From positions 248,001 to 312,000 of the forward strand of contig QPGO01000024.1 in the NCBI GenBank assembly GCA_008632985.1: a stretch of 64,000 nt of DNA, in the 5' to 3' direction. The stretch's first letter is position 1, and the number at the start of each line of letters is the position of its first letter. Shown piece after piece: positions 1 to 50,019 of the stretch. A program made the position numbers and the translations under genes. Origin of the DNA: Psammoneis japonica. Taxonomy: Eukaryota. The notes beneath the pieces were generated by a model. The model was not told the DNA's origin, made no database searches, and saw only the letters and a program-made list of their open reading frames with translations.

Positions 1-3000
1 TGCCATCACTTTGCCATTGCTGCTTGGATGGGGCTTTTGTTCTTCTTTGCCCTTTGGCTGCTGGCTGCACACAACTTGATGAAAGCTTCTCCTGTCAACA
101 GAAGATTGAGCCAGTCCAAGCTTTTCATTTCACTCGTTTCAAGAGTGCATGTGTGAAGTCATTCATTTGACATTTTCTGAAATGGTGCACAACATGATCA
201 CTGCTCAAGGAATGTCATCCCACAAACACCTCTTCTCTCCTCCTCCCGTTTCTCGCATGGACATGCCCCAGTTAAGAATTTTTGCACCCAGACAAAGACA
301 CCATCAAGAACTCAAATTTTGAGCTGGTCTTTTCTCATTTCATGCACATCAGTGCCAGCATGTGCAAGAAGATCTTGGCAGAAAGAAGAGTTTCAGCAGA
401 GTGGAGCATTGCTTCCAGCCCAAGAGCAGCAGCAGCAATGTGGGCATCCAGCCTTTGGTGTGAAAGGTGGCTGCAAAAAGCAAAGGCACCTGGGCCCCAC
501 TTTTAGAAAGTGAAGCAGCACAAACTGCCCAAGATCAACACACCATGGGGGAAAACATGGGCACTGTGCAAAATGTTGAACCATTTGTGGCTTCAGCACA
601 AGCAACACAAATGATGGAAGAGTGCCAAGACACTGCCAGGACATGTCATGCTCCTGCAAATGAAGGCTTTGAGGCTCTTTTTCACAGTGCACATCTCTCA
701 GCAATGTTGAAAACAAGCCTCTGAAGCCAGCTGTCAGCTCTGACACTGTGGCAAGTTCCAAGGTCACAAAGAGCAAGAAAATTGGAGAATTGACTCCTGC
801 TGCAAAAAGAAAAATCTCTGTGCCATGCTCTGATTTGGGCACTGGCTTCACATCTTTCAGACTTGTGCCAGCGTCAATTTCATGTCATCATGATGCATGA
901 GATCATGGGCAGAGGCACAAATGCCAAGAAGCTTGCTTGGCACAGGAAGCACTTTGAACCCCCGGTGCCACATGATTTGCCACACTGCGTGATGACACAG
1001 CTTTGACTCCAGATGATCTGTGCAGTGTTGTTGCCAGAGCCACCGTTGGCATTGTTTGATGGGAACCAAACCCTTCTGTCATGTTCTTGCCTTGTGTTGG
1101 TTGGTGCAAGGACAGCAAGACAATTTGCCAGCAGCTTGACACCAGCCAAGAAGGAATGTCCACTCACTCCTCTGTTTGGTGTCAGCAACACTGCTCAATT
1201 GGCCACAACAACACACTGCAGGTGTGGCACATGTGACTGCACATGCAAGAGAAAGAATGATGGCAAGCTTCTGCAAAAGCTGCCAGCACCTCTCCATCAG
1301 AGTTGTCCTGTGGACATGCAGCACAAAAAAGTGCAAATTCTTCATTGTCTCAAATGATGCTGCCTGTGACTTGACACGTTGTTGGCCACACAATGAGGGA
1401 GCACAGAAACAGAGATGCATTTCTTCATTCTCACATCAACAACAAAGTGAGCCAGCTCTTGACACAAAAGGAGTGGCTCTGCTTGCAGAGCATTGATGCT
1501 GGCAGAAACAATGCCCAACAGATTTGCTGATGCTTGAAGAGTGGGCGGGTTGCCATTTGCCAACAGGGCACAATTTGAGGGACATTTGTGGTGCAGCTGC
1601 ATGTGCTCAGATCTCACTGAAAGTGCTGGCTGGAGTCAGCAACAAGGCCTGTGCCACACAAGAGAAATCCAATTGATTGGCTGCAACATTGGCTTTGCAC
1701 ATGACTGCGCATTTGACCAATTGAAAAGCTGCAAAGAGGACAATGGAGATGGGCTTTTTGCAGTGGCTGCAGAGTCTGGAGAGATTGTGTTCATGCCACA
1801 TTGGTGCAATCTCTTGCAGCCAAGGATCATGCCCATGCAGCAGAGCAAGTTGCAGGATGGCCAATTGATGTCCCAAAAGTCTGCTGCTCCAGCACATTGC
1901 CAAACAAGGAATCTTTTTAGGAAGAAAAATTTGCTCAAAACATCACATGCCACCTTGGTCATTGGCATTGGATGAACCTCATTGTCCACACATTGGAAGA
2001 AATGCATGCAGATTGCTGTCAGCTGTCATGGCATTTGTGATTTGAGGGGTTGCACAAGGTGCAAAAACAAATCTGATGAGTTCAGAGTGGCAGATGCATG
2101 TGCTGGTGTTTTGAAACTGGGATGTGAGAAGCACACTCAGGACAAAGTTTTGGACATCAAAAACAGCAAAAAAATGGAAGAACTGAGAGAAATGCTGTGC
2201 TCAAAAGTGGGCTTGCAGTCTTGAAACATGCAGTCAAAATGTGGAAGCATGGTGGATTGAGCACACATGGCCTTGATGAACCTCTCCCACATTGAGATCT
2301 GTGCAGAGCTGTCAAGCCTTCAAAGATTCCAGGCACAAAGTCAACTCACATGTGGCAACCACTGGAGTGGAGTCCAAGCTTGAGAAGTTCCACGATGTTA
2401 AAGCTTGCAAAGGACTTTGGCAGCTCAGGATGAAGAAGCTCCTTTGCTGATGCTTTGTGTCCAGCTGGAGCACGTGAGCACAATGCTGCAATTCAAGAGC
2501 ATTTGAGGATGGACAAGATGACTGCACCAGAGCATGCAAAGATTGTGCTCATGCCTTTCAAGGGACACTGACATCCTTTCTCAACCATGGCAGGCTCCAC
2601 TGCACAAACAGCTTGGCAAGAAAATCAGGGATCACCCACGCCATTCATTGCAATGTTGGGCAACTGCAAGAGGACAATGGGAGGCTTTTTTCTCCAAACA
2701 TCTGTGGCTGCTGGAGCACACTCAAGAGGAAATCAAAGCACAAGATGATGCACATGACATGTGTTGCTTGTCAAAGCAGTCTCACCGGTGCAAAACCTTT
2801 TCTTTCTGTCATTGTTGTGGCCAGAGGATGTGTGGAAAGAGAATTTCAGGCTGACATGACTGACGTTGTTGGGTGATGCACACCAGTTGTTTCTTTGGTT
2901 TGCCTTTGCATCCACACTCTGGACTTTCCAAAACTGTTTGAAAAGAGCTTTTGCACATCTCAAGAGCACCCAGTTGCAAAGGGTGTGTGGCTGCTTGGCT

Positions 3001-3689
3001 CTGAGCTTTGTGTGCAGAATGTCACAAAACTGAGCCGGCCATTGTTGTTGCCAACATTGTTGTTCTCGTCATTGTCCATGTTGCTGTCACAAGAAGATGG
3101 CAAACTTGTTCACTTCCAGTCTGAAACAAAGATGGTTGTTAAAAGAGGGCCAGCAGGGTGGGAGTGGCAAGCAGGTTTCCGGGTGGCTGACAAGTTGGTG
3201 TGGAGTGCATGGCATGCAACCAGTGCACATTGTGAAAAGTGTGCCCATCTCTGTCTCACTCAGCCCAGAAGGTTTTTCCCTGTTCAAAAACAAGTGCTGA
3301 AAGCCAAGGACACTTCTGTTTTTTGTGCAAAATGGGTGGTGTTTGGCAAGTTCTTAGCTGGTCAGTCTTGTGTGACAGAGAGGTCCTCTGCTGGTGGCCA
3401 ATGGCAATGGCAATGTGTTTGCTGCAAGCCACACAGCGAGTTTGGAGATGGCACGACCAAACACACAACAGTTGGCGAGCCATGAATCTCCAACAAAAGA
3501 GTGCCCCTGTGCTGCTGTTGGGATGTCAGGATGCAGGGCCAAGGAAGTTTTCACAGAACAGATGTCAGAGACACCAAAGAACAAACCAGAGGAGCCAGAA
3601 TGTCCATCGGGTGCAGCTGCACAAGAGAAGGACAAGGCTGTCTGGGGGGGGGGAGCAATGCAATCACCAAACAATGAAACAGGATGCAA

Positions 3690-4320
3690 TCTACAAGATG
3701 CAGAAGGTGAAGGTGTTTGGCACAATTGTGGGACAGTGTGTGAAGGCTGTCTGTCACAAGGTTGAAGGAGTGATGGAGTTTGAGAGGGCCACAAGAAAGA
3801 AGTGGGACATGGCGGTGCTGTTGGAAATTCTCAAGTCAATCTTGTTCAACACAAACAAGAAAATCTGCTTGCAAGCCCAGATGGTCCAGGCTTGGAAGCA
3901 GCTGGCACTCATTCATCAGGATGAAGGAGTGGCACTTCAAGATTGCTGGAGTTGGCTCCTTGTGAACACTGTTGAGATGGTGGCAGGGTCCTGCAGCAGA
4001 CTTGTCCCGGAAGAAATTGCCAAGCAAGGATGCTGATGATGCACAGAAAAAAGAAAAAGGAGCAAGTGCTGCCAATGGAGGGCACCAAGGAACATTGGCT
4101 CATCATCTTGAAAGAAAAGCACTGGCAGCTTGCACTGGAAATTGACAACTGTCCCAACTCAGCTGTGGAGGCACTGCAGGTGTTGGATGCATGTGGGTCT
4201 GACAAGAATTCTGAGGGCATGAGCTTTGCACAAAATGAGAAGAAGCAGATCCAGTGCTGGAAATCTGGAAATGCAACAAGGTTGGGCATGTGAAGAAGGG
4301 CTGTTCTTTGCTCAGTGACA
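3690..4320 (+). mobile_element. Degenerate Ty1/Copia (CoDi-like) gag remnant
   Basis: KVFGTIVGQCVKAVCHKVEG...WDMAVLLEILKSILF resembles the diatom Copia gag pattern (I.GQCS..M..KLE...D...LL..IK). A frameshifted zinc-knuckle-like segment follows (CWKSGN..RLGHVKKGC). Confidence 0.55.
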
Positions 4321-6974
4321 GTGATGATCATTTGTTGGTGGAGTCGGCTGAGGACATTCTCAGTTTTTTTTTTCTGCCAAATCGCCTTTGTTTTTGCTGC
4401 CCCGGCCCCACCACTGAGAATGGTGGGCACATGATGTGCAAAGTGGCAGCCATGCCAACTTGACAAGCATGACTCAGATTCAGTGCAAATTTGTTGTCAG
4501 TGCACTGTGGCCAGAAACTGCACAATTCACCTCACCATGGTGACTCAGCAGCTGCCAATTTCTCAATGGCATTGCTTGAAAGAGCCACAACAATCAACTG
4601 CACATTGCATCTTATGAACTCAAATCCAGGCAGCACAACTGACATGTGAGAGTGCATCTGGCTTGTTGTTGACTCATGCAGGTGAAAAGTGATGGGCAAA
4701 AAATTAAACATTTCAGCTGTTTTTGCTGCAATCAATTAATTTCAAAGCACACAGCAAGGCACACACATTGAAATTCAAATTGCAAGCTGTTGACACATGT
4801 GCCATTGTCATGATGAGTTTGTTGTTGTTGACAGAGTGTGTTGCACTCATGGTCGCCATTGCTCTTGGCACACATGAGGCCAGTCAATTGACAGCTTGTG
4901 CAAAGGAGTGTGTTGGAACGTTGGAGTGCAGTGCAGTTTCCACAGGATGGACAGACAATGTTGCAGTGAATGACATGCACTGACAAGATTGTTGATGATG
5001 TGGTGAATTTGTGCTTGCAACTCATGTTGAGTTGAGGGTCTTTTTTGCTCCCTTTTTGGCTTCTGTGCCTGATTGACACAGCAGCACCAGTGGCAACAGC
5101 AATGGAAATGTGTTTCCAACCCATGTGGCAAGTTTGGGGATCAAGGAGACTGAGCATGCACCTGTCGGCAAGCTGTGAAATTCCAACATGTGGCCAGTCA
5201 CAGAGCTCCTGCATCCAACAACTCCTCCGCATGGCTGGCAAAGACACCACCCCACCTCTGTGCATCACCACCCTCTGTTTTGTTTGGAGGGAGAGCTCTG
5301 TGGCCCAATTGTTGATCAAGACCTTTGATCAACAAGTGCTCCAGGGTCTCTGCAGCAATCATGACTGTTTTTCTCCCCCCAAGCTCTGAGTGATGGATTT
5401 CTCAAGAGAGCAGCAACAATGATGATGAGGTCCATTTTTGTGCATTGTGCCACAGCCCCTAACTTGTCAAATGTGAGTCACACCCTTCCCTGGGGTGGCT
5501 GCCATCAGGCCCCACACTGTTGCCACCAAAAGGGGCAATGAAAACACTGCTTTGGTTTGCCCACATCCAGCGCCATCATGGGCCATTGAAAACACACATC
5601 ATTTGGTGTGATTTTGGCAACAAAAAAGCCTGGGACAAGAAATTTGAGGAAGAGTTCAACCCTGGCTCCTTTGAAAGGGAAGCCACATGCCATGTCATGT
5701 CATGAAATGTGGCAGCAATGAATGTGGTCGTGCAGCTCTTGCTGGGGCAGAGCTGCTGACCAGTCTGCACAGCTTTTGTTGTTCATCAACTGACAAGTTG
5801 GCTTTTGTTTGAGCAGAAGCAGCAAGAGACAAAATGATTTGTTGCAGTTTTTTCAGGTGCAAGCAAATCATGTTGTGGATCTTTCCTGCCTGCCAGCTCC
5901 TCCACAGCAAGCCCACCCTTTTTTTTTGCTGAACGTCCATTTTTCCCCTGGCGGCAAGCCCAGTGGTTGTGCATGGACACAAACATGTCACATGTTGTGC
6001 CAACCATTCTTAAACCCGTTGCAGTCATGATGAAGGGGTGCAACTCGGGGTGTGATTTTGGGGTGTGCACGCGTCTCTGTGCCCCTCAAAAATTGCAGCC
6101 AACAATTGCCCCTCCTGGAACATTCCTGAACCTGCCATCTCAAGACCATTTTGTCAAAATTGTCAATGCCTGCATGTCATGTGCTTGCCATTGAGGTGGC
6201 ACAGGCACAAAAATGCACTGTGGCACTGGATGGACAGAAATCTTGAATGTTTCTGGGAATCAGGAATTTTGTCACCAAGGTTGTTGTTTTGAAAATGTTG
6301 TTGTGTGGACGTGTGAACACATTTGTTTTCCTGCAAAAAATGTCTCTCAAAAATCAACGCTGCTTTTGTTGCAATGCACTGATGTCTTTGCACTGCTGTG
6401 TGAACACCACGCCATTGCAGCAACACATCATTCTCATGACAAACTTTTCAAGTGGCACATGACATGTTTTTTACTTTCTGGATTTGGCAGCATGCAACGG
6501 AGACCCAACATGATGCACGTTGGAGGTCTGCATTGAACACCTTTGCCAAGACATCCATGGGAGATCCTTGCATGCATCCTCTGCATGGACTTCCCTCACA
6601 TTGCTTGTGGTGACGTGACCACCATTTTCATTGTTCGGCCATCCGGGCAGTCAATGGTGTCTCCCTGTTGACTTTCAATGGTCCCTTGGAACGTGTCCTC
6701 CAGCAAGTCAAAATGGCCACAATTGAAATTGTGCTTCTCACAAAAGTCAACTGGCTCACCCTCCTCATGCTCCTGTGGCTCCCCCTGTTTCTTTGCATGA
6801 ATTTCCTTGCAGCCTTCACAAGGGGCCCACGGCTCTGGGATGTCATCCACGATGCTCATTGTTGATTGCACAAGAGTGAGAGCATGTTGTGCACGGATTG
6901 GTTCCAGCTTCCAGCAGCTCAGCATTTTTCTAAGCTTTTTGCCACAACAGACAAACGAATTTGGATTCTGCTGA

Positions 6975-8030
6975 ATGCAAAATGGGGTGTTCTGTGAAAA
7001 ACTCCAGGATTCAAAATGGCAGTTCTTGTCAGACAAATCTGCACGCAAGCTGTGCACCAGTTGGAGAAGGGGGTGTGGGTGGAAACAAATTTGCAACAAG
7101 CAGCAATGCCAGCAGCAGAGTTGGCAGAGCAGGTGTTGTCAAATTTGCACCAACATCCAGTGCAGCAGATCATGTCTCGACGTGAGGTTGAAAACTCAAG
7201 GCTCTGCCTCATGGCAAGCCAGGCACAAGCAGAACAATGTTGCCAGCCATCTCCTTTGGAACTTGCCTGGAACAAGTGTTGCCAATGATGACAGCAGCAA
7301 CAGTTCTGACAACAACAATGGCAATGACAGCCACACACTGCAGTGGACTGAGGATGAATCTGCTGCCAACAAACGCCATCCTGAATCAGAAGACGAATCT
7401 GAAGAGGAAGAGGATGAGCTGAAAGATGACAGAGACTGTTGTGTGTCACTTCCATTGAAAGAACCAACTGAGATGATTGAAAAAAACATGGTTTGCAAAT
7501 GCTGCACAAGTCCTTTCTGTGTCACTGCCAATGAAGTTAGCTTGTCGTGTGCCATCTTGTGCAGATGTGACAAAGGACACGTCACAATGTTGGAGCCCAA
7601 GACTCTTCCCACTGGACACCAGAACAATGCTGTTGCACACACCATCAACATCAAGTCTGTGCTTGCGTGCCACTTGACCGGCTTGGGCAATTCAGACCTC
7701 CAAACAACATGTGGCATCTTGGGCCTGTGCTGTTTCTAAAGCCTTGGTCCACCATTGAGAAGAAGTTGCATCCAATCATGGAAGAAATTGCAAATGAGTG
7801 CATGGATCACAATCTGAAGAAAGAGTGGGAAGCCACCCATGCACAACGGCTCCCCGGATTGGCTGGTGGAATGGACACAGGATGGCAGGCACGTGGGTCC
7901 GGCAACTCATGCAGCTCCAACAGTGGCCATGCATTCACCACCGGCAGCCTGAGCAGCAAAATCATTGCAAAGAGCTTTCCACATGTTTTTGAAGATGTGT
8001 GATGAATCTAAACAGAAAGGTGCCAAAATC
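6975..8030 (+). mobile_element. Degenerate Mutator-like transposase
   Basis: CKCC...CRCDKGH, HTINIKSVLACHLTGLG and MDTGWQARGSGNSCSSNSGHAFTTGSLSSKII match the Mutator-like motif DMGWQKRSSG..Y.S.SGHAF.IG..S.KI. Broken by a frameshift/stop at ~7739. Confidence 0.7.
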
Positions 8031-8450
8031 ACAATGTTCGAGATTTGGCGAGCAATGCTGAATGAGGGGTGCATGGAAACTTGCAGTTTCTTCCCACAAA
8101 CAAGACAAGGGGAGTGTGAATGAGTGCTCCAAACACTTTGTCACAAGAAATGTTCAAGTTTCCATTGTCCGGGAGAGGGTTTCAGTCAGTGAGGTGACTT
8201 TGACAATTTGTGCAGAAAACACACTGAGTTCTACACAACAGAAAATTGGGCCCAAATTTGCACCCGTGCCACCTCAATTGTCACGCTTTGTTGCCAAAAC
8301 AATGTCACACATTTGAATGCTCACATGTCATTGTGGAAAATGCGCAACAAAGAAGACCATCTGGCAAGGCATTCTCATTGCTTAAATTGCAATGACTCAA
8401 GAATGGAGTTGCTCAAATGAAAGTCACAGTTGTCAAACAATGCTTGTGAC

Positions 8451-8712
8451 TCATGACAACTCACAACAACTCACGACAACTCACAACAGCTCACAACAGC
8501 TCACGACGACAAATTTCACTTGACACACTGCAACTCGCGACAATTCTTCAGACAGTGCACATGCACACCAACATGCATCACAACATGTCCAATCACACTT
8601 GGCATCTGAGCACTGTGTGTGCAAGTGCTCCCGACAACTCATGACATTTCTTGCTCAACTCCCAACAACTCACGACAACTCACGACAGCTCACAACAACT
8701 CACAACAGCTCC
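8451..8712 (+). repeat. Two clusters of a 10-bp tandem repeat (consensus ACAACTCACR)
   Basis: tcatgacaac tcacaacaac tcacgacaac tcacaacagc... at 8451-8510, and again at ~8655-8712. Confidence 0.8.
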
Positions 8713-11090
8713 AGACAAGTCAGGTCATTTGATGCAATGACTTGGCAACAAGCAGCTCTCGCCAAAACAATGATCGTTGCTTGTTTGACTTTAAGTGTGG
8801 GTTGAACAAATGGGCTGCATCTTAAAAAATTGTCAAACACTGGTCAGCAGACATTGCAATTTGTTGGGATTGCCAAAATGAGAATGCTGTCAATGTCACA
8901 TTTGCAGAAAAGAAAATGCACAAGGTGGCCGATTCGGGAATGTTCCTGAGGCATGTAATTTTTGCCTGCAATTTTTTGCAAGTGTCTGCAATTTTTCACA
9001 CAAAAACAGACTCATCATCGTCCATGATGGCAACAAACATCAGAATGTCAAACAACAATGGCAACCAACAATCAACAATGAACTTCAACCAGCAAGAGAT
9101 GCAAGAACTTGTTGATGGGGAGCCATCATGACATGGCAAAAAATGGCAAGATTGCCATCAACAGACAACAAAAAAATGAAGGCAAGTTCATGCCATTTCA
9201 GAAGAAAAACACATCACATGGTCACTGAAACTTTGGCTGTGGATGCAATTGCAACACACGATGTCAATCACACAATTGCAAAAGACCACACTTGTCAGAA
9301 CAATGATTTGACATGCGCGCAAGGTTGCAGCGGAGCCGCCAAACACCATGGTGTTTTGATGCTGTCAACAGAATGTTCAGCTGTGTGCACAAATGAGTTG
9401 ATTGAAATCAGAGATGCAGAGTTGTTCCTGCTTTGTTGTCAACAATTTTGAGGAACATGCACTCAATGCATGTGTCATCTCTGGCAGAATTGCAGACATC
9501 CAATTTCACACTCTTGCAGTCGTGAGAAAATCGGGTGTGATTTTGGGGTGCAAGTTGATGCAATGGGCATTTTTGCACCTCCAAATTGCACCCAAATTTC
9601 CACAACTGCAATGGGTCTCAGTGTCAGGCCCCCAGCAGAAAAAAATGGACGTTTGGCAGAAACAAAAAACTCAGCACAGCAAGACAACGTGCCAGGCTCA
9701 GCAATGCCCAGGGCTGGCAGTTGGTTGCCTCTTTCAATGTGTTGGCTCAATCAAGAGGTGGTGGTGAGAAGAATTTTGTGCCAAGCCATGTTTTAAAACA
9801 AAAGAGAAAGCAAACACAGCTGCAGCACAGGCACCTGTGCTGCACATGAAATGAAGGTGGTGCGGCAGATGAAATGAAAATTCAAGGGTGTCATCAAGCC
9901 CATCTGTGATCATCTGTGGTGCTGAACAAAGAGCTGCAAGATGTTGAAAGTGACCAAAAGCTTGTTTCACAGCATCACAAAGCTCTGCCTTCTTGGACAG
10001 CCAAAAAACTGTGATTGCCCCACAATGACAAATCAATCTCAGGGCAAAAATGTTGTCAAGATGCAGCAAAAGCTTTGAGCTGCAGCTCAGATTCTAAAAA
10101 CCTGACTGGAAAAAGCTGGTGTCCTCTGAGAAGTGCAGCAATTGTTCTGCAGGAAACTCAAGAAATTGAAGTGCAAGCTGTGCAGAAAAGCAGCAAGCTG
10201 AGCATGCCTGGAGCAGCTGCGTGTTCAGTGCAACAAGAGACTTGGGCAACTCTTTTGGAAAGAACAGCTGAAAACCAAAAACACTGCAACATGCAAAGGG
10301 GCTTGCTGCCAGTCTTGTTTCAAGGCACAAAGCAACATGCTGGCACATGAAGTGCAGCAAATGGCTTTGCTGCAACCAAGCACCAGCTGAAGTGTGCTGC
10401 TGGTGCCCTTGACAATTGGGTTTTTGCCCTGGCTTGCTCTGCAGTGGTGGTGGGCCAAGGCAACAATGGGTGTCATTTTTGGAAAACAAGAGCAGGGCAT
10501 AACATCAAAGGGGGTCTCAGTGATCTTTGCTTGCAAGATGAGTGCACTTGCCCCCCCCTTGGCAACAAACTTCAGCAACTCAACGCTCACAGTTGCCAGC
10601 GTTTCAGCTGGTGGGAGCCTTGGTGCCATGACAACAAAAGAAGCCTGCTGGGTGCCACCCAAGTGTCAAAAAGTGCTGTGTGGGGAATGTGCCTGCAGCA
10701 GCCCCAGCGGGCTGCAAGCAAGTGTGGTCCCTGAGATGCTTCTGTGCTCCAAGCCCATGCTCCAAAATGATCAAAAAGACTGGAGCATTTGCACTTTATC
10801 CCGAACGCTGGGGAGTGGCTCGTGTTGTGGCAGACAGACGCGCTCCAAGAGATGTTGCGCGTTCATGGTGCGCGCGGAACTCGGAACGCGAGGTACGGTC
10901 GTAGGTCTAGGTAGACGAGCGAGAGACGAGACGGAGTGAGATATGCAGACAATGATGGATGCGACGACGACGACGACTCGATCGGAGTATGCCAGCTCAC
11001 AACGAGTGCGAAACTGTGTGAGTGACCGAGTGAGTAGTCAGTCGAATTTTGCCACCAGCTTGCTCTTGAAGTTTTGGTTGTTCCACGCCA

Positions 11091-12239: not shown

Positions 12240-13697
12240 AACCTAGAATGCACCTACTGCATCCAAATCCCTCGACTCAAATTGCAACTACATCATACAC
12301 CGGGAGCCCCAGCAGGAGGCTGTCCCGTTTGCTTTCCCGCTCTCTTAACTTCACCCACCAAAAAGAGCTTGTTAGCAAGGACGGTTGCAAGATGGCAGCA
12401 CTGTCTTTTGACACGGATGTTATCCCAGACTCCTCGTCAGCAGGAAGCATTAGGTCGCCAGTCTTACAGTCTAAACCCACTGGCAATCCTGAGGATTCAT
12501 CATCATCTTGCAACCTCAAGATGCTCTCTTGTACATCAAATCCAGAATTCTCCGCAAGAGTCTTTGGAACAAGCAAGAGTGCTTCCGCAAAGGCTTCTAC
12601 ACCAAGCTTTGCTTGTCCCTTTGTTGTCTTGATGATTTTTTTTGTCTGAGATGCGTGGATGTAGCCAGTTGAAGGCCCTGGCTCTCCTGGAGTGACAAAC
12701 CCATCCTCAGTGCCGCCATTCTTGACCACACAAAGTCCATCACCAAATGGCGCCCTTGATCCAGTTGATGGTGTGTGTTTGTTGGGTCCCTGCAGAAGGA
12801 GAGTGCAGCTCTTGGGATGATGACATTTCTCCACAAAGGCAATTTTGCCATCCCCTGGGGGGAGCAACTCCGCAGACCTTTCTTCCGGCCCATGAAAACT
12901 GCTCCTCATCCATGTGTGTTCAACCAAATGAGAATGAGAGAACCTCCACATGCCAAAGTGAGGTGCTCCGTGTTGCACTGCTTGGCATGGTGCAAGCATG
13001 AAATGCCTTCTTTTTTTTGGCAAAAATGTCAAGCGGCAAAATGGGTCAACTCCCTTTTGACCATCATGACAAATCTCTCACTCTGCTGCAAGCAGGAGCT
13101 GTTGTGACAATGATGTGTTGTGGGCTGGCACATCAAGGGCATGATGAGCAATGGAGCAACAGTGGCCATTCTAACCAGCTTTTCTTCTTGGTTTGCAGCA
13201 ACAAGAGACCACCCACAAGCATGATTTGTGGACGCAGCCCTTGGCGGCAAAAAGTGGCCTGCACGCTGCGGCAATTCTCTGTGCACAACAAACACTTGAG
13301 GTCATGCCAACATTGACTCCAGCTGTGCTGTCTTGAGAGGTTGGTGTGCTTGGGCCAAGCCAGCATGCACCTGCACATCAGCATGTGGTGCGCTGGCACG
13401 CACAGGTCAGGGGGTGCTGCTGCACCGGCAGATTGAGAGGCAGCACCCCCCTTGTTGTGCAAGAGAACAACCGCGCACTGCCATCTTTGGAGAGCTCAGT
13501 TCGTCCTGTGCCACTGACCAGCATCCTGAGAGTGCCCAGAGGTCTGAGGTTGCTCTTGACAATGCTCCACAGCCCCGCCCCCGGCTGAGATGCCCCATAA
13601 CAGGCATTGACTCAGAACTCAGAAGACTGCCCTCGTCTGCCCCGGGCATGACACAAATTTTGGCATTGGGGTTGAGTTCTTGAAGATGAGATGTCAT
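12240..13697 (-). pseudogene. CCT6: T-complex protein 1 zeta (CCT6) pseudogene
   Basis: Fragments in shifting frames: MTSHLQELNPNAK, VKSNLRPLGTLRMLVSGTGRTELSKDG, FVEKCHHPKSCTLLLQGPNKHT, KGQAKLGVEAFAEALLLVPKTLAENSGFDVQE. Multiple frameshifts. Confidence 0.85.
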
Positions 13698-13958
13698 GTT
13701 GCTGTTGCTGCTTCTGTCATTGAGAGTGCTGGATGAGAGAAAGTAAGAAACAACAACTCGAAGATGCGGGGCAGTTGGAGTGGGGGTCGAAGCAGGCAGG
13801 GTTGAAGATCGTGTCACCGCGCGATGCATCGCGCGAAATATGCGCGCCAAAACAAACGCAAGCCAGCCGAGCCCAAAATTTCTCGCACCGCAAATCAGAA
13901 GATCAGCCTCACGCCACACTGTTCAGCATTCAGCAGTTACAGTACGGCATCTATCACC

Positions 13959-23132: not shown

Positions 23133-24192
23133 TGTACAACAAGAACTTCTATTGAAATAGAGCAAGAGGAACTGTCTTCAATTCCTATTCTTATCCTCTC
23201 AGAAGTACGCTTTTCTGTTACGACTTTCACGAAGCGTGGTGCGTCGGTATCAGGTATCAGGGACGGAAGATCTCGACCACACATCACCATTGCGGCCGCA
23301 ATCAATTTTCAGCGTCTTTGAAAGCATATTCAAAGCTGATAACCTGTTACAGTACACTGTACGTAGAGCTTGTACCAGACAGAAACCGGATCTAAGCATA
23401 GCTAAAGTACGTTCAATTCTACGGGGAGTTGCAGGAAAAAACGTCTACGCATGGTTCCACGCGTTTTTTCCCTAAAAAGGCGCCACCAGCCCGCGCCGCA
23501 GATAGCTGGCTACTAGTCCCACTACTAGCAGTAGCTAGAGTGGAGAGAGCAGGGCCCTACAGAAACGAACCCACTGTATGTACCGGGCGGCCGTACTGTA
23601 CTGCACCTACCAGAGAAAGAGAGCAGACGATTACGACGACTGCCAGCATGCCGCACGTACGTCGTACGTGCAACAGCGAAAAGCCAAAGGCGTGAGCACT
23701 GCTGCACTCGTACTGCCGAGTTCATCACCGAGTCAAACTACAGTCTACTCTGCTAGCTAGAGCAGGCCCTGCTGCTGCTACAGTAGCAGCTGTGCTAAGA
23801 CTGTTATTGAAAGAATATTTTGTTGTGCCAATCAGTCACTAATGATCCTAAATCCCAATCTGTGCATTGTGTCAAATGCGCGCGCATCCTGTCCGCTGGC
23901 GTCCAGCTGCCCTGTGTTTGTGCCAGGCGCTGAAAAAGAAGATGTGTTACGACTCTGTCGTTGTGAAAATTATGAGCTAGTTTAGAGTAGAGAAAATGGG
24001 ATCGTGCGAACAGGGAATCTTGCCAAATCCCTGTTCGTTCGCACTTGGATCGCATCAAATCGATCGTGCGCTCGCATTGTGGATCGTGCGAATCAAGCCA
24101 TCATGCGCCATGCACGAGTGATGTCATCGTGTGGAATCACGCTACCATCGTGGGCCAGACGACGGGCTAGTGTGCTTCACACGGATGCTCTC

Positions 24193-25463
24193 TCAGCATC
24201 CTTCTGGAATTGCCTGAGACCTGGAGCCACGCCCTCCTGTGGTCGTGCTTCCCAGGCACGTGTCAACAACACTGCGTTGCCACGTGCAAGAGGCTTGTGC
24301 ACGGTCTCGCCGTGTTGTCCAGCAGCGAGGCATGCTGCACAGCTCCCAATTGCAGCCAATGAGTCCAACACCGTCGCCTGTGGCATCAATCAACTTGACT
24401 TTTGGATTCTCCACAGCGCAGCATGTCGAATCTTCCGACTTGAGGTCCACATGAATGATCCTGGACCCATCGCGACCACCCAACAAATGAACCTTGTTGA
24501 TTTTCCTAGAGACCTGGATTGGCAAGGGCACGAGGGATGTGGAAGACAGGACCTCAGAGTCACACTGCCTCATTGAAGACAGCTCATCTGAAAGAGCTTC
24601 AAGGCGCTTGCAGACGTCACGGAGTTCATCATCGCCACCGTGGTTTCCCCCTTGGGCAGTGGCTTCATCAAGGAGAACTGCGTGGAGAGCGTCCATGTCC
24701 ATGGAGTGCTGTGGCCACTGGGAAACGCAACTGAGCATCCACCCATTGCTCACAACAGACAGCTGGATGCCAGAAAGGTCCGTGGTGCAAACACCAGATG
24801 GAGCCACAATGACCAACATGACATGATTGGTCTTGGTGACAGAGTCCTTGCAAGTGGCTTGCAAAACCATGGGCTTGAAGCTTTTCCAAGAACCTCCTTG
24901 CCCACCACCACGTGCCTCCATCACAGAAGCAACACCAGCTCCATTCATGACAGCAGCTGCATCGTTGTTGTTTGCAGGAGCTGGAGCCGACACCGTCCGA
25001 CGAGTGCTGTCAAGGCCACCCGAGAACAGCTCTTCGTCGCCGTCGTCGGTGTCTGTGGCCAGATGAAAAAAAAGAACACCGCGCGACGCGGTCAAATGAA
25101 AATGCACGCGCAAGCAACACAGTGACGTCACTCACATTCATTTCGAATGCATGTGCGAACACGGTGAAAATCAAAACTCACCGTCAGGGTTCTCATTGCT
25201 GTCGTTCATCGTTGACGAAGATTGAACCCGGTTTCGTCTTTGAGCCTGTGCAAGCCAGTGCGGAACTTGTCCAGTGGATGGTGCATGAACTCTGCACGCA
25301 TCTGCTGGATCTCTTTTGGCGTCGCTCCAGCGCTTGCCCTCCCATCCATCAGCATCTCCTTCAAGAGTTTGCAGTCGGCAGACCCCTTGCGCCACACTGC
25401 TCGAAGGGGGCCGGCGGCCTCAGTGTCAAGAACCGATTTGGTTCGTTGGTTGAGTTTGGGCAT
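24193..25463 (-). pseudogene. Degenerate accessory ORF, probably of the adjacent PIF/Harbinger element
   Basis: ORFs 25206-25508 (WRKGSADCKLLKEML..PKEIQQMRAEF..PLDKFR) and 24193-25131 are Tyr-free and divergent from the transposase. Harbingers typically carry a second ORF. Confidence 0.45.
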
Positions 25464-26402
25464 GGCTTCTTTGGTTTTCTCTTTTTTATGAGAGGATTGA
25501 TGGTGCACAGTCGAGAGTCGTCAAGATCAGCGTTCGCATTGACGGGCAGCAATGAGAACCCCATTTTTGAATGGGTCACGACCAACTTACCTCACCACTG
25601 TCCGCGGGACACTCTTTTCAAATTTGAACAAATTCCAACCGCCAAAGTGAGATTTGAGAAAACACCAACCGCCAACATTGAGAAAGGGCCTCTTGACAAT
25701 GAAGATTCCCTCAAGACCACACGAAAAATGTTCCGAGACCACACAAAAATCGTTCCCAAATCACACCCAAAACGATTTTCAGCTCCAGAACGATGACTTT
25801 GGACCCACTCAACTGAAGAATGAGTGGCTGAATCCTGAGCTTCGGCGTGTGTTTGCGACAGCACTGATGGCAAACCAGCTCCTGATGTTTATTTTGGCTT
25901 TTCATTGGCATGTTTCCGTGCGCTTTTCGTCCATGAAAAGGCGATTTCATTTTGATTTGTAGAACAAGAATGCTTTTTTAATGCCCCACCAACAACGGAC
26001 CATGGTTGTAAAATTCTGTGTCGCATGTTGCATGTAAACTGCTGTGTCAGTTGAGCCAAGAGCACGCTTTGGAATGGTTGTTCTGCCGTGTTCCGGTTGA
26101 CAAAATGACGCCCAAAGTTGCCCATTGTGAACGTCCCGAAGTCACCATTCGGAAACCACACCCGAATCGCATTTTTTTCGCATTTTCTTCAAACACAACG
26201 GAACCTCACCAAAGGCCTCTTCCAATGAGAACCCCAACTGCATGAAGACGACAAAACATGGTTGTCAAATGTAAAACAACTGCCACTCTAGAGCAGCCAG
26301 CTGGAGACTGGAGACTGGCCACTGGCAGCAGAGACTGGCACAAACGGCGCAACAGAGAAAAGACTGAAGCAACACACTGTGGCACATTGCTGGTTGCTCA
26401 TC

Positions 26403-27320
26403 ATGAGACTGCCCAAAGAGGCCGCAGAGCACTTGGCACAGACGATCATTCAGAAGCCAAAAGGGTCAACTGCAGTGTGGAAACGTCGGTTCGCACCACA
26501 CTTCTGCACCCCAGAAGAAGTGGCACCTGAGTTGTGGGGGCTTCTCCTTGACGACGGGAAAATGCCACGAGGTTTTTTGCCCATTCACATGCTCTGTGCC
26601 CTTTGCTTTCTCAAATTGCACGAATCTGAGACAGTCGTTGCTGGCATCTGTAATAAAATCCATGAAGACACGCTGAGAAAATGGGTTTGGGTCGGAGCTC
26701 AACTCATTGGACAGTTGAATTTGGTGCGCACCATTCCAGATGGGACTTGCATGCATGAAACAAATGGGCTGACACCTTGTTCTTAGATTCGCTGGGAAGA
26801 CCGCTTCATTGATGATGATGGCAGCAGATGTTTGGTGACACTCGACGGCACTGACTTCAGAGTCTACGAGCCATCAAAATTCGATCCAACATGGCTCTCC
26901 CATGAATTCCACGGTGCTGGTCTGCGGCATGAAATTGGAGTGTGCATTCAGACAGGGTGGATTGTTTGGGTCAATGGGCTGCACCCAGCTGGGTTGCCGG
27001 ATCTGAACATTGCTCGTGAATGGATCGTTGAAGAGCTTGAAGATGGCGAGATGCACCCAGCCGACGGTGGCTGCAGCGACGGGAGCCAGCACAGCTCGAC
27101 TCCATCCGGCCTAAGAAATGCAGACGAGGCTGTGAAAACAACAGCAAGGGCAAGGCATGAGGCTGTCAATGGATGGTTCGAGCGTTTCGGAACACTTGAC
27201 AAAAGATGCCGCCACGCGAAGGAAACACATTGCCACGTGTTTCATGCCGTGGCCAACATCACACAGTTGGCCCTCATGATGGGTTGCTCACCATTTGATG
27301 TGGATTGTTTTGACAACTAA
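26403..27320 (+). mobile_element. PIF/Harbinger DDE transposase, mutated (likely intron ~26723-26787)
   Basis: VTLDGTDFRVYEP, SHEFHGAGLRHEIGVCIQTGWIVWVNG, ADGGCSDG and RARHEAVNGWFERFGTL. Positions expected to be Tyr read as His/Cys. Confidence 0.85.
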
Positions 27321-28414
27321 AATTAACAGTGGAAAGCATGTTGTCGCCAAGATGATGTTGCCGTGAACGTTCCTTAATCTCATTGTCGATGCAACGCCTC
27401 GCGAGTTCGATCGCGAGCAAAAGCGAACCCCTCCTCCCCACCACAGGCAGCCTGCAGCAGCGCCCTACAGCACTGTCATAGGGCCCACAGCATGCGCCGG
27501 ACTGCATCTCCGTGACGCACGGGCGGGTGGCGGCAGCGCGCCCGGGGATGAAAATGCACCCACCGATGACGCAATTGTGACGTGTGCTTCACGCGCTTTT
27601 TCGTGGTAAGCCTTGCGGGGTGCAGACAGACGCCGGCAGTGCATCAGCGCATGCATTTTTTATTTCTGATGATTCCGCGCGCAGATGATGGGGATATCAT
27701 GCCGTACGACAGAGATGCCGATGCCGAGCTTCAAAACCACACTCTTGTCTCACACCCATTGAAGCTTGTGGTTGGTTGACTCCATTTCTCTTCAACCAAA
27801 AGCACTCACTTTTTCCTCTCGCATGGCAAATTTCAAGATTCTCAGCAACAAAAATCAAAAGCACAAAACAGCCCTCTGTTCGTTTCCACGACAGACACAC
27901 CCAGCATGACAACTGGCAGACAAGATGATGATGTTGTTTGCGGGGCAATGCGGCAGACAAACAATGCTACAAAAAAAGCTGCCGCGTGTCACATCATCCG
28001 TGCCATCAAGCAGCAGTGCAACAATTGTTTTTTCCTGCAACTCCCGGTACTGATAGAGATAAAAGGTACGCAGTACCAACCACAAATCAGATTTTCAAAA
28101 ATTTGAAAAAGAGATGATTCGAGCTAAAGATCGTCTCACACTCCAACATCGTCCGAGTTTTCCCTTCGTTTTCTTTGCTGAAGAAGACAATAAGATGCTA
28201 CACATGGTGATGGAAGAGTGCTGCCATACCCGCGTTAGACCTGGAGGCAGGCTTGCAATGTTGAGCTATCACGGCATGGAAACGTGTAGAAACGAATACG
28301 AGTTACCGAAGACGAACTAAAAAACAATCCAAGATAGCCAGGAGTGCGACGCTGCTGCAGAAAGGGTAGAAACGATAAAACATTAGCGTTGGCTATAGAT
28401 ATCATCAAAGCACG

Positions 28415-41186: not shown

Positions 41187-44100
41187 TGCAGGCAACTGTG
41201 GGAGACGCGGCAAACGCGGCAACACAGCAACACGCACACAACGGCGATACATACAAGTACATTATCCCGGGAATACAACCCATGTTGTATTCCGTAGTAT
41301 TTCTCCGTTGAATTCTACACATTGTACTGACCGTTACCCCACTTCAGCGACCGTATCTTCCGTGTTCTTGTGGAGGAAGCACGGGAATTTTTCCCGCATC
41401 GAAACAACCGGGTTGTTGCATGGTACGTCGCGTTTTTGATAGATTTATGCAACAACACAACCGAGACCATGCCGTCTAAAAAGTATTACAAGCCAACCTT
41501 GATAGCACTCACGTTATTTCTTGGCGGGGTGACTTGTCAATGTGAACAAGACTTCACCAACCAGAGGCCATTCAAACAACCCCCAACGATGTCGTGGTGG
41601 ATGGGTCTAAAGGCGCATGGAACGCCCGAACCAGGCGACAACAGCTTGCCCATGCAAGCAAGGTCAAATTGGTTGGAACACTGGAGGAAGCCGATTTCCA
41701 GCTGCATGTCAAACCGGTTGGTGCCGTGGAATGTTCTGTCAAATCAAGGCAACCCGACACGATCAACTGACGTAAAAAACCCCGTGCCATGTTTGACACT
41801 CACATTCAATGTTCTTGTTACATGCAGTGCGTGTCTAGGGCTTCATTCTTCCTTGTTCAATCCACAACATCGCTGGAGCGCCCCTTCCAATTGAAGCATC
41901 ATTTCTGTGCGCACGGCATCCAATAAATCCATCTGCACAGAATGGAATTTTGCACAACAAAGCCAAGCCTCTTGGATTCCTTGTACAATTTCCATTGACA
42001 ATGAAACAAGAATCGCAAAAATCGGCCCAAGGGATGTTGAGATGTTACCGCCGCCAACTCTTTGCCATAAATTCCAGTGGCAGCTCAATTTTGATTGTTC
42101 AACGACAAGCTCCGAAGAGAAAGTCAGCACCACAAAAACCCAAGCCCCGTGGACACCTTGTGGCACATGAGTCAAAATGATGACAAGAAGTGAGAAACAA
42201 CACCAAAGGTGCAATGGCACATCACAAAAATCCGTCATGTTGATGCTGCATTCTCACAATTTCTGCACTGCACCTTCAGCGACAAATCCGCCTCGACGGA
42301 TTGAACTCAACGCCAGCACCACTAGCCCATCACATTGCTTGCATGAAAGCTCCGAATGCTGCGAAAAGAAACGGGAAAATGCGGCAAAAATAGACACAGA
42401 TGTCAGCGACGCAAGGGAGGCCATTGTCGCGATCGTTTTCTTTTTTGGTTGTCTTCGCAGCTGCGCGTCTTGGAGGGTGCTGCAGGTTGATGTAGCGGAA
42501 GTCGGTGTCTGTGCTTTCCTGGTGACCCTGTAGAAGAAGTGCTAGACCCTGCGCAGTTGTGCCCAGGGTTGCATTCTTTCCGTCTGCCTCCACAATGCAC
42601 ACCTTGTGTCCAGCTTTGGCCAAAGTTGGCCACATGTCCGGGTTTTCCTTGGTGCACATTCAGCGCACATTCTACGCAGTTGGCCAACATCGACTCGAGC
42701 TCCGATGACTGGTTTCAGATTTTGCGGCCGGCTCGCGCGAATTTTTCGTTTTTCGACGTTTATCATGCAGCATTTCTGTTTGAAAATGTCCACAATTATG
42801 TTGTATTTTATTCATCATACACATGTTAGCACTCGCCACTGCACGTTTGTGCCAAAGCACACGCAGGGCAGATCGCTTCACCAAGCTCGATTCGAACGAA
42901 ATCCCGTGGACTCAAGGACAGTTTTGCTTGCACAGACCCTTTCAGTCGGCAAAACCACAGCATGCTGCAGCACTTGGGTACAAAATTACGCAAGTGCTTC
43001 ACCGTGTTAAAAAATGGCAACCACGGCGAAAGCACGAAGGAAAGAGACAATCTGTTGTCTGCCCTGTTTAACACTGGGACGTATCTTGACTGTACAAACT
43101 GATTGAACAGACACACTTGACAACACGCAATGATCTTCTGCCGAAGGAATCTACTTTGTCAGTCATTTAGAGTCTCACAAAGTGTCGCCAGTTAATTGCT
43201 GGCGTTTTGCGCGGCAATTTGGCGAGCGACTCACCGCACTTTACCGTGGTGAAACAAGGATTGTCCAAAATTTTCGATTTGACATCTCTGCTAGCGAAAG
43301 TTTCGAGTTGCACAACCTTTTCATGTGTCGAGCAACAGTTGCACAACGTCAAACCGCTTGCATTGCTCATGTGGACGTTCTCCACCCCTCAAACTTTTCA
43401 CCATGCTTTCATCACGTAATTTTGATTTGCAACGTAGAATTCTGCGTAGTTTGTGTGTGGCATGCTGTGGTTTGGCCTTTTTCTGAAAACTGAAAGGGTT
43501 TGCTGCATTGCTTCGTTTTGTTTTTGTCTGTCGTGCGTGTCGGAGCGATGGTGAAAATCCAACCGCCAAACCATTTGAACGCATTTGTGAAAGTTGTTGA
43601 ACAATGTGCTTTTGTTGCTTTTCTCTCATTCTTCCGAAGAGCAAAGCAACAACAGCCAACCAGATGGTTTTAATTGCTCTCACGTCTCCCACTCTCTGGT
43701 TTGTCCACCCAGCTTGGGGGGGCTGGGATTGGGGATTGGGGCTTGCAGAGCCGCTTGGCAAAACCACCCCACTCTGCCAACCAAGACCTGCTCCAGTCTG
43801 TTGCTGGGAAATGCAGGAGAACAACCAAGAAGGGCAACAACAGTTGCCCTGATTTAAGGTGCACGCAAATTGTCATGGACCAAGTTCTGTGTGCCATGCA
43901 TTGCACTGCAGTCACGGACAAAGATGTGGTTGGAGATTGGAGCAACACAGCTGCGTTGTGTGGCCGTTGATCTGCTGCATGTCAACTGCAGCCCAGAGAC
44001 TGCACAAAATGGACAATGATGGAAATGTCCAGAGCTGCACTGGTGTGACCAGAGGGTTGATCATTGCTGGCGCATGGGCGCTTTGCTGGTTGGCCATTGT

Positions 44101-45005
44101 CAACACAACAACAAACATGGATTTGAGACAAAACATTTTACGTTTCAATGATTGATGATCTCAGGTTTGTCAATCTTAGAGTGAGGGACATCTGGGGTGC
44201 TCTTTGTCTTTGTTTGGATGCTTGTCTCCCACCACAAATGAGAGCTTTGCAACACCTGTGGGCATGGAAGCATCACAAAGTGCCTGATCTGCGCCATCCT
44301 CATGACTGCATGCCTTTCAAATCAACTTGACAATGGCACTTGTGGTCTGCAAATGGCTCAGCACAATGAGTGGAGAGTGAGTGATGTCCTGCAACTCATC
44401 ATCATGATCAACACACTCTGTTTTGTGCTTGCAGTCCCCTGCCCTTGTGGCACCTTCATCCTGTCCAGATGCCCACGTCAAGCAAGTTGGCAATGAGCCC
44501 AAATGCGTGCTCCAACTTTCAAGCTTTGCCATGGCTGCCCTCTTGTGTGACAAACCTTGGCCAAACTGTTGAGAGAAGAGAGGCCAGCAGCAGCACTGTT
44601 GGCTTTTTTGTGGAAGCTGAGCTGAAGAAAAGTGCTTTGTTACAAGATTTGGAGTTGACAAAGATTGATGGGGTGGCTTGGTGGGATCAGCCTGCATTCA
44701 CAAGCTGGGTCCCTTGTCCAAAGGGATGAGAAAAGGGCAGTGGAAGGAGGCTTGTTTTGTGTGGTGACTCTCCAAGGAGCAGAGAGATGCACATTGTGAA
44801 CTTTCCTGTCCCCACGGTGGGTCCCACCGACAAAAAAGTCCAGAAGATGCATGTGACCCAGCTTCCAGTTTTGTGCAACAATGCCACAGCTGCCCACAAG
44901 CTCCATTGAAAGCATCAGTTGAAAGCCTTGTTGTTGACATTTTTGGCTGCAGAAACAAGTGGGGCTGTGTGGTTCTGTCTACAGTCACAACATAAAAGGG
45001 TCTTG

Positions 45006-45372
45006 TGCACTATGCTCGAAGAACGAGTGTAAACGAAAGTAGAACGAAGTTCGAAAAGTGAAAATTATGAGATTAATTTTTGCTCTGTGATTTTTGGTTT
45101 TTCCGAACGAGTTCTCAATGGCCTAAAGCTTCTGCACTGCTTCTACAGACAAAAGGCCTTTCGGAGAATATATTCGTGACAACAGATTGTCCGGATACGA
45201 TTGCTATTGACACGTAAGATGTCAACATCGTCAATCGATCGTATTTGCAATTTTCGACATCCGATCAACTCTGTGTGATCGTTCTGTCCTTTGTACGTAT
45301 CCACGACTGTGGTACGATTGACATATAAATAATATATAATCATAAATATGTATATAACAGCCGCATGCTGCA
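45006..45372 (-). mobile_element. Solo LTR (367 bp), same family as the element at 55838-60563
   Basis: Reverse complement of the LTRs at 55838 and 60197, with TGCA ends. Flanked by a CTTG duplication (45002-45005 and 45373-45376). Confidence 0.93.
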
Positions 45373-45963
45373 CTTGCCCTGGAAAAAAGCTTGCTGACAG
45401 GAAAACAAAGGGTGTGTTGCTGGCACTGGGCAAGCTTCTCACACAGTCTTTTTGGGTGCACAAAAGAGGGCTCCAACAAGGAGCTTTTCATCATGCCCCT
45501 GCTGCAAATGAACATGCAAAACAAGGCAGCGCAGTTGACAACAATGCCGCGTGACACTGATTTTTAAAACAATGCAGCAAAAATCTGTGGGGCTGTGTTG
45601 TGCAGCTGCCAGAGCATCAAAGCAAGGTTTGAGCAGCTTTGCTCACTGTCAACAAGTCTTGCACAATTGCCAATGAGGGTGGATCAGAACAAGACCAAAA
45701 AGACTGACTCTTAATTGTTTGAAAACAACAGCCACAAAGTGAAAAAATGCCCATTGGCTGGCCAGGAGAGGCAGTCATTTTTCAACCAAAGAGTGACTTG
45801 AGGCAACTCAAAACCCAGTGTGCTTGATGCTCACACATGAAGCAAATTGGGTGTGAGCCCTGGAGCATTTAAAAGTCATTGATTGCTGTTTTGTGCACAA
45901 AAATTTCTCACAAATTCAGTCATTTTGAGAGTGATCAGCCCCAAACCCCAACTTCATTCGCGT

Positions 45964-49977: not shown

Positions 49978-49978
<1 letters not shown>

Positions 49979-50015
<37 letters not shown>
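49979..50015 (+). repeat. (CT)n microsatellite
   Basis: About 18 CT units. Confidence 0.95.

Positions 50016-50019
<4 letters not shown>

Follow-up and report, generated by a model that had tools for sequence, protein, structure and literature searches.

Neighbour-dependent loss of TpA from repeated and duplicated blocks in a 64-kb window of putatively diatom-like nuclear DNA

In the 64-kb stretch of eukaryotic nuclear DNA analysed here (the window), the dinucleotide TpA has been almost eliminated from discrete blocks of repeated or duplicated sequence, with a matching gain of TpG and CpA, and the few TpA sites that are left stand out by the bases that flank them. The footprint shows a TpA-specific, block-confined A:T to G:C process that affects both strands and depends strongly on neighbouring bases. 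We give a probability of about 0.65 to the reading that a DNA-level, flank-selective TpA mutator drove these blocks almost to saturation. Its targets would be the repeated or duplicated blocks themselves, namely remnants of Mutator-like (MULE) and PIF/Harbinger transposons, unnamed multi-copy families, and a pseudogene of CCT-zeta, in which it would turn TpA into TpG or CpA (A:T to G:C, on either strand) in place, after insertion or duplication. The rate would be set by the neighbours of TA over a range of ~15- to 35-fold per half-site, being fastest with T or C after the A (so that RTAY, with R a purine and Y a pyrimidine, is wiped out), intermediate with G, very slow with A, and slower still at T-run/A-run junctions. 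Because A-flanked sites would be lost so slowly, TTAA and, to a lesser degree, TTAG/CTAA would remain as a residue, which ordinary C-to-T drift of the flanks and of CA/TG would keep feeding. Older blocks would additionally lose CpG, as cytosine methylation of silenced repeats would give.

Over the full window, the observed/expected (o/e) ratio is 0.34 for TpA and 1.46 for each of TG and CA. Genic DNA contains ~40 TpA and ~55 CpG per kb, with o/e ratios of ~0.4-0.9 for TpA and ~0.85-1.4 for TG/CA. The strongly depleted blocks, which we call old, retain 1-6 TpA per kb (o/e 0.00-0.08), with TG/CA o/e at 1.6-2.1 and CpG o/e at 0.04-0.38; for the stretch from 1 to 10 kb, the values are 1-6 TpA per kb, TpA o/e 0.01-0.08, CpG o/e 0.07-0.38, and TG/CA o/e 1.7-2.1. 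TG/CA is ~1.9-fold enriched in depleted blocks, the edges of which are sharp at the 250-bp scale, and this confinement of TpA loss and matching TpG/CpA gain to discrete blocks is as described for hypermutation in Bigelowiella natans. Other TpA-poor blocks have kept much or all of their CpG (12.5-13.8, 24-28, 42-43.5, 57-59, and 63.3-64 kb). Since CpG is at normal levels in the TpA-poor blocks at 24-28 and 57-59 kb, the losses of TpA and of CpG are two separate layers, and the second, a loss of CpG with gain of TG/CA in the old blocks, has the footprint of methylation-driven CpG decay. For the counts below, old blocks were pooled into 22.1 kb (55 TpA), younger (CpG-retaining) blocks into 8.5 kb (78 TpA), and genic reference blocks into 26.1 kb (1071 TpA).

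A preliminary description of this DNA had noted that the TpA sites left between 270 and 10100 are mostly YTAR, and this held up well. With every TpA of positions 1-10712 listed, 19 of the 24 in that interval are YTAR (10 TTAA, 9 CTAA/TTAG, and no CTAG), compared with 182 of 1071 (17%) in genic DNA (binomial p 4e-11), and none is RTAY, a class that accounts for 31% of genic TpA (p 1e-4). All 13 places it had named are TpA within 1-2 bases, and all are YTAR, although 11 more TpA were omitted, i.e., six YTAR and the five exceptions (CTAC twice, TTAT, TTAC, and GTAA). YTAR is a fair shorthand for this interval but not the motif itself, as CTAG is lost from the old blocks (1 observed vs. 34.7 expected at genic density) and the true refractory flank is T before and A after. 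The old blocks as a whole hold 23 TTAA, 16 CTAA/TTAG, 9 GTAA/TTAC, 4 ATAA/TTAT, 2 CTAC/GTAG, and 1 CTAG, with ATAT, ATAC, ATAG, and GTAC reduced to 0. Relative to genic density, these are 0.78 for TTAA, 0.18 for CTAA/TTAG, 0.07 for GTAA/TTAC, 0.036 for ATAA/TTAT, 0.029 for CTAG, 0.015 for CTAC/GTAG, and 0 for the remaining four. The order is broadly the same in younger blocks (TTAA 0.97, CTAA/TTAG 0.38, others 0.28-0.05), CTAG excepted (0.60).

These densities are described by a half-site model with four rates, one for each base that can stand 3' of the A or, equivalently, for the complement of the base 5' of the T. Compared with uniform depletion, the model is strongly favoured in a likelihood-ratio test (old blocks: chi2 140.7, p 3e-30; younger blocks: chi2 40.8, p 7e-9), so the depletion of NTAN tetramers, whose comparison between depleted and genic blocks the preliminary description had proposed as a check, is far from equal. 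The fitted rates are A 0.10, G 1.68, C 2.62, and T 3.52 in old blocks and A 0.11, G 0.49, C 1.15, and T 1.51 in younger blocks, and both fits reproduce all ten tetramer classes. Thus, by the base after the A, the order is T >= C > G >> A. A following G protects weakly, TAG being lost at ~1/3 to 2/3 of the TAY rate, and it is TAA alone, and more so TAAA and TAAAA, that is refractory; a division into TAY targets and YTAR survivors is too coarse. Unequal depletion of this kind is the expected trace of a context-selective mutator, unlike drift, and the data support it. The earlier argument from context dependence to an enzyme rather than drift has, to that extent, the backing of the likelihood-ratio test, with an enzyme as the putative agent.

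The context effect extends beyond the immediate neighbour. Position +2 is A in 40 of the 75 surviving TAA half-sites, compared with 141 of 452 genic ones (p 3e-4), and position +3 is A in 24 of those 40 survivors, compared with 41 of the 141 (p 6e-4); A-runs are likewise enriched around survivors relative to TG/CA sites of the same blocks (p 3e-5). The fraction TA/(TA+TG+CA) rises from 0.001 without a flanking T/A run to 0.05-0.10 with runs, growing with run length. The effect is present with a run on one side only (class 0,3: 12 observed vs. ~28 predicted by genic density).

A possible objection is that TpA was removed uniformly and that the excess of TTAA reflects an equilibrium between mutation and removal, with biased C-to-T regeneration from TCAA/TTGA and flanks. 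Comparison of the window with single-copy contigs of the sequencing run X1, which may be the source sample, indeed shows ordinary transitions in the blocks: there are 23 differences in 10.7 kb, of which ~10 are CpG<->TpG/CpA and one creates TTAG. In addition, CTAG stands at 0.60 of genic density in younger blocks and at 0.03 in old ones, whereas TTAA persists. However, fresh transitions from the local TG/CA pool would yield 22.5% YTAR and 6.9% TTAA, whereas across all depleted blocks 40 of 55 sites (73%, p 3e-15) are YTAR and 23 of 55 (42%, p 4e-13) are TTAA, and the hierarchy is already present in younger blocks, where little regeneration is expected. We therefore regard such an equilibrium as very unlikely, compared with a flank-selective mutator. 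The residue may be labile all the same, as 3 of 25 residual TpA (TTAA, CTAA, and ATAA) differ from X1, vs. ~0.2% elsewhere (Fisher p 1.6e-4, for unpolarised differences). At two of these three sites (3139-3140 and 10499-10500), the difference reads TTA vs. CCA and ATA vs. GCA; such double changes may be clustered events or paired C-to-T changes.

The preliminary description also proposed a direction of change, namely A to G in TAY (or T to C in RTA). In its strict form, this would be a strand-specific A-to-G change only in T-A-Y, by which YTAY becomes YTGY, RTAR becomes RCAR, RTAY goes either way, and YTAR is immune. Putatively Tyr-derived codons of the PIF/Harbinger open reading frame (ORF) offer some agreement: after a purine there are 5 His and 1 Cys (G|CAT, G|CAC four times, and A|TGC), and after a pyrimidine there are 4 Cys (C|TGC, T|TGT, C|TGT, and T|TGC) and no His. 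The Fisher p for flank vs. His/Cys is 0.048 with all 10 sites, but 0.107 with the 8 better-supported ones (those where 23% or more of the homologues have Tyr) and 0.33 with the 4 that are strongly conserved. Moreover, 4 of the 5 His cases come from the palindrome GTAC, for which a tetramer rule predicts 50:50, and the amino-acid read-out is biased in that at most sites it sees one of the two outcomes. Among the codon examples given earlier, CGG CAT, ATG CAC, GGC TGC, and GAT TGT were verified against homologues, although they lie at 26787-27317 and not within 270-10100; AAG CAT, GGT TGC TGC, and the PFHARPH segment (48203-48223, minus strand) are without homologue support here. The aligned depleted parts of the CCT pseudogene contain no informative conserved Tyr column for polarisation. 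Composition in old blocks also agrees with the rule, with a YTGY gain of 33.9 per kb vs. 13.2 for RTGR, which equals full polarity plus unpolarised CpG decay, although this signal may come from CpG decay or ancestral composition. As for single events, TTAG vs. TTGG in a tandem duplicate and ATAA vs. ACAA against X1 fit the rule.

Several results weigh against the flank-selective mutator, and the first of them against the TAY rule as well. In CpG-retaining blocks, the YTGY gain is 8.8 per kb vs. 12.6 for RTGR, and at 24-25.9 kb the values are 43 and 52 per kb, so that there is no YTGY excess and polarity is absent or reversed. Several events run contrary to the rule: ATAA to ATGA (K205E, N11D), CTAT to CCAT (Leu to Pro), TTAT to TCAT (Leu to Ser), and CTAA to CTGA twice (K56E in CCT, and 5461 against X1). 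Outside Tyr codons, polarised events split about evenly for and against. Some of the contrary events may be ordinary substitutions, because 22 of the 29 changes at conserved Harbinger columns are neither of TA nor of CpG type. Beyond direction, the one-sided run effect fits protection by the duplex or by chromatin as well as it fits direct base recognition, and the half-site model describes the counts about equally well in its additive and its multiplicative form (deviance 3.3 vs. 6.8 and 7.3 vs. 7.8, df 6), so the two forms provide no test of strand independence; survival counts are, in addition, mathematically blind to the difference between a 3' rule and its mirror-image 5' rule. The survival ratios are densities relative to genic DNA, which is an unverified stand-in for the ancestral composition of the repeats. 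The residue may be partly regenerated rather than surviving, and two of the three unpolarised TpA differences from X1 come with an adjacent second transition. Finally, the enzyme is a putative agent, read from a footprint in the 64-kb window.

As regards direction, tetramer composition was set aside as a decisive test: it depends on what the ancestral composition was, CpG decay confounds it, and its answer in old blocks is the opposite of that in CpG-retaining ones. TAG half-sites disappear about half as fast as TAY ones, and old blocks have hardly any CTAG left, so YTAR is not immune. What remains of the TAY rule is thus a weak fit in Tyr codons and in old-block composition, set against mixed polarised events and the lack of any signal in CpG-retaining blocks. 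We consider the rule doubtful as an explanation of the footprint and conclude that its strict form is refuted, while a statistical tendency may exist.

The run effect raises the further question of whether accessibility, and not base recognition, protects the refractory sites, with T-run/A-run junctions shielded by duplex stiffness or by exclusion through the chromatin state. The rise of protection with A/T run length, even on one side, would be expected in that case, and the multiplicative model, in which the whole TpA step is the unit, fits about as well as the additive one. By contrast, the +1 base by itself already gives the order T >= C > G >> A, and ATAT and ATAA belong with the tetramers that were depleted most, which is not what plain AT-richness would produce. 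Accessibility in place of base recognition therefore appears unlikely, and we favour a mutator that responds to the flanking bases, although, given the run-length effect, accessibility of the duplex or of chromatin may contribute.

Several lines of evidence show that mutation acted in place, after insertion or duplication. The CCT-zeta pseudogene is a copy of a host gene and yet nearly free of TpA over 1 kb. In the Harbinger remnant, which has 214 homologues (and 2381 HMMER hits), there is 1 Tyr in 342 codons, whereas the homologues have a median of 3.4% Tyr, and conserved Tyr columns of the family carry His or Cys in the window. Three of the homologues are in a similar state (P0244, P0257, and P0391; 0.6-1% Tyr, with Cys/His at conserved Tyr columns). 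P0257 and P0391 (ENA; members of one 90% cluster) differ from each other by His vs. Cys at two conserved Tyr columns after Gln, and P0244 (JGI metagenome) has C, C, C, H where the window has H, H, C, C. Since the outcomes differ among sister copies, family copies were hit independently, also outside the window. Within the window, a tandem duplication in an old block (45965-46779 and 46801-47639, 91% alike) shows adjacent TG<->CA double differences and one TTAG vs. TTGG. The double differences indicate that the two halves were mutated independently after duplication, although each TG<->CA difference could stem from an ancestral TA or an ancestral CG. The sole in-frame stop of the Harbinger remnant is a TAG at 26784-26786, in TTAG context, and, since long homologues align straight across it, it lies within the coding region and is not an intron boundary. 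An inverted-repeat search of 23600-28400 found nothing convincing as Harbinger termini, and metagenome scans for DNA of Harbinger relatives (with the window ORF and then P0244 as queries) gave no confirmed locus.

The CCT-zeta copy shows that a duplicated host gene was hit as well as transposons. It lacks residues ~115-292, contains frame breaks, and bears at least 14 inferred CpG-type changes, for instance from Arg to His, Cys, or Gln, and in the stretch 12533-13839, which covers part of it, 1078 bp retain 2 TpA. Contigs of X1 and of a second run, X2, contain a paralogue that is ~89% alike where the copy is least damaged. The X2 contigs lie on the window's copy in pieces that skip parts of it; we take the skips to be introns that this copy has retained, although X2 is labelled 'DNA?' and one skip is 680 bases long. 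The named CCT-zeta matches are all from diatoms and other ochrophytes: the cluster of the top match contains Attheya; Cyclotella, Thalassiosira, Triparma, and Ectocarpus come next, and where the copy is least damaged, its identity to Cyclotella is ~75%. Together with the long unbroken host ORFs of the window (SKA1, Bmt2, an RFC-like AAA ATPase, an MFS transporter, an epimerase, an AMP-binding enzyme, and an LRR protein), this suggests a diatom-like host. The near absence of TpA from the CCT-zeta pseudogene suggests that duplication or silencing, and not foreign origin, is what draws the mutator.

Transposon-type targets, as in B. natans, are represented by the MULE and Harbinger remnants and the multi-copy families, in addition to the host-gene pseudogene. 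The two multi-copy families were recognised because contigs from a public sequencing run of this organism pile up 6- to 20-fold on 3336-5336 and 8005-10005. Among the 144 stop-to-stop ORFs of at least 90 aa in the depleted blocks, two matched Pfam above the curated cut-off and a third matched weakly and was confirmed by homologues; family and homologue comparisons of these ORFs recognised no viral gene. The ORF at 3236-4033 has no homologue that we found, and the one at 24196-25131 has no match in Pfam, PDB, or Atlas. Matches to Sha_B_N, Apc5_N, and Toxin_TOLIP in Cys-rich spurious ORFs (E 7e-4 to 8e-3, below curated cut-offs) were treated as chance. Self-comparison of the window gave 10 repeat pairs, with one useful pair within a depleted block. 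It also revealed a 370-bp repeat, of which one copy lies inside an old block and two others at 55838-56207 and 60197-60566; the copies are 96-99% alike, and all are TA-rich and untouched. The targets are repeats and a duplicated gene, as would be expected if duplication were the trigger, but these three copies are unmutated; either a young age or an insufficient length would explain why the repeat escaped.

Regarding the agent, we infer that resident DNA may be attacked by an enzyme, for which a polynucleotide adenine deaminase, the kind proposed for B. natans, would be the simplest candidate. The natural target of TadA and ADAT2-ADAT3, A34 of the tRNA anticodon, follows the invariant U33 and is therefore in U-A context, although the order T >= C > G >> A is not derivable from their tRNA substrates. 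The same footprint would result from A to G on one strand or T to C on the other, and thymine chemistry is thus another candidate: TET/JBP-type oxidation or another modification of T in TpA might miscode as C and leave the same TG/CA products. Hydroxymethyl-uracil is concentrated in TpA in some protists. By contrast, we see no sign of thymine modification in the window, and the sole experimental study proposes adenine deamination, itself on the basis of candidates only, so that we hold thymine chemistry to be quite unlikely and prefer the mutator acting on adenine. Even less probable, to the point of being hardly credible, is ADAR-like editing of transposon transcripts followed by reverse transcription, or the arrival of DNA natively poor in TpA. 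ADAR usually favours U upstream of the edited A, according to the Discussion of the B. natans preprint (10.64898/2026.01.13.699255), which would speak for editing. However, TG and CA rise about equally on one strand, where RNA editing would leave A-to-G changes of that strand, and the targets include DNA transposons and a host-gene copy with introns read as retained. Furthermore, sister copies differ in outcome.

The basic phenomenon is known from one preprint, which describes it for viral DNA integrated in B. natans and for other foreign DNA there. According to its text, in mutation-accumulation lines of B. natans, 230 of 231 single-nucleotide mutations in two hypermutable viral inserts were A to G or T to C, all 230 at TpA; de novo TpA mutations in culture were ~1000-fold above background; the genome contains 124 clusters depleted in TpA and enriched in CpA and TpG; affected sequences show an excess of transposase and reverse-transcriptase domains; and an ADAT2-like deaminase is proposed as a candidate (10.64898/2026.01.13.699255). 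When the preprint's main text was searched for the terms flanking, context, tri-/tetranucleotide, and CpG, none of them turned up (10.64898/2026.01.13.699255). The window resembles B. natans in TpA-specific A:T to G:C change, in clusters poor in TpA and rich in CpA and TpG, and in having transposase domains among the targets, and it differs in its diatom-like rather than chlorarachniophyte host, in the targeting of a duplicated host gene, and in the additional loss of CpG from old blocks.

RIP of ascomycete fungi (point mutation induced by repeats) resembles the process here in producing near-saturating transitions confined to repeats, with a dinucleotide preference and independent outcomes in sister copies. 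However, RIP consists of C-to-T changes and enriches TpA, lowering G+C, whereas the direction here is opposite, i.e., TpA is destroyed and G+C rises; RIP depends on repeat length and identity, and here a 370-bp repeat with copies 96-99% alike is untouched. The decay of methylated CpG is shared as to the TG/CA products and the low CpG of the old blocks, yet it forms a separate layer, as the TpA-free blocks at 24-28 and 57-59 kb keep normal CpG. ADAR and APOBEC3 likewise produce deaminase-type clustered transitions with neighbour preferences, aimed at selfish elements, but the substrate of ADAR is RNA and that of APOBEC3 is C in single-stranded DNA, whereas in the window A:T to G:C changes are found in both strands of DNA that is resident, DNA transposons included.

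Textbooks describe how selfish DNA is hypermutated in a targeted way in fungi (RIP) and by vertebrate APOBEC. Its A:T to G:C counterpart at TpA has so far been reported once, in the 2026 chlorarachniophyte preprint, and full-text literature searches returned nothing on such hypermutation in diatoms. What the window adds is the occurrence in a diatom-like genome, the targeting of a duplicated host gene, a CpG layer of its own, and the hierarchy of neighbours. Seen in a diatom-like host, this scar extends the phenomenon to a major, genetically tractable algal group. We suggest, tentatively, that diatoms (or a close ochrophyte relative) might run an adenine-directed, RIP-like hypermutation of repeats that is the same ancient system as in Bigelowiella and would thus be found across the SAR group (stramenopiles, alveolates, and Rhizaria), with T-A-not-A as its footprint and T-run/A-run junctions immune. 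If so, this motif could be used to find hypermutated DNA in any genome, and the enzyme could be identified by matching its in vitro specificity to the motif. The hierarchy is a concrete specificity that any candidate deaminase must reproduce, and it can be checked against the published list of de novo mutations in B. natans.

Table 1. Depleted blocks, recognised targets, and repeats in the window, with strand (a point where none applies) and basis.
Feature	Position	Strand	Basis or properties
Old hypermutated block holding 270-10100	1..10902	.	TpA ~2.3/kb, CpG ~9/kb, TG/CA o/e 1.7-2.1
Multi-copy repeat family	3336..5336	.	Summed contig depth 740-1280 vs. ~62 single-copy
Mutator-like (MULE) transposase remnant	7571..7999	+	PF20700, E 9.9e-8
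Second multi-copy repeat family	8005..10005	.	Summed contig depth 360-1070
Truncated, frame-broken copy of host CCT-zeta (TCP-1)	12296..13697	-	Pfam, homologues
TpA-poor block, CpG kept	23989..28000	.	3-11 TpA/kb, 37-65 CpG/kb
PIF/Harbinger (DDE_Tnp_4) transposase remnant	26292..27317	+	Pfam weak at 26787-27317; homologues
Partly TpA-depleted stretch, CpG kept	42001..43492	.	Dinucleotide counts
Old hypermutated block, TpA and CpG both low	43436..45011	.	Dinucleotide counts
TA-rich unmutated 370-bp repeat inside old block	45006..45372	-	Self-comparison
Old hypermutated block	45354..54066	.	2.8 TpA and 5 CpG per kb; holds tandem duplication
TpA-poor stretch, CpG kept	57001..58900	.	Core 57845-58607
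Old hypermutated block	60529..62584	.	Core 0-2 TpA/kb
TpA-poor stretch, CpG kept, cut by window edge	63297..64000	.	Dinucleotide counts

We read the block at 23989-28000 as a younger or an unmethylated target. The TpA-free blocks (e.g., 1-10902 and 45354-54066) lack TAA and TAG, so that TGA is the sole stop, and ORFs run in all six frames; these spurious ORFs are rich in Cys and His, contain no Tyr, and give chance-level matches to Cys-rich Pfam families. The loss of TAA/TAG stops and of Tyr codons thus creates long spurious ORFs and makes proteins escape homology searches. Such blocks are a trap for gene callers, and annotation pipelines should recognise them. Finally, the stretch 59750-60250 is very TA-rich, with 26-30 TpA per 250 bp, a few hundred bases upstream of the TpA-free block that begins at ~60.5 kb.

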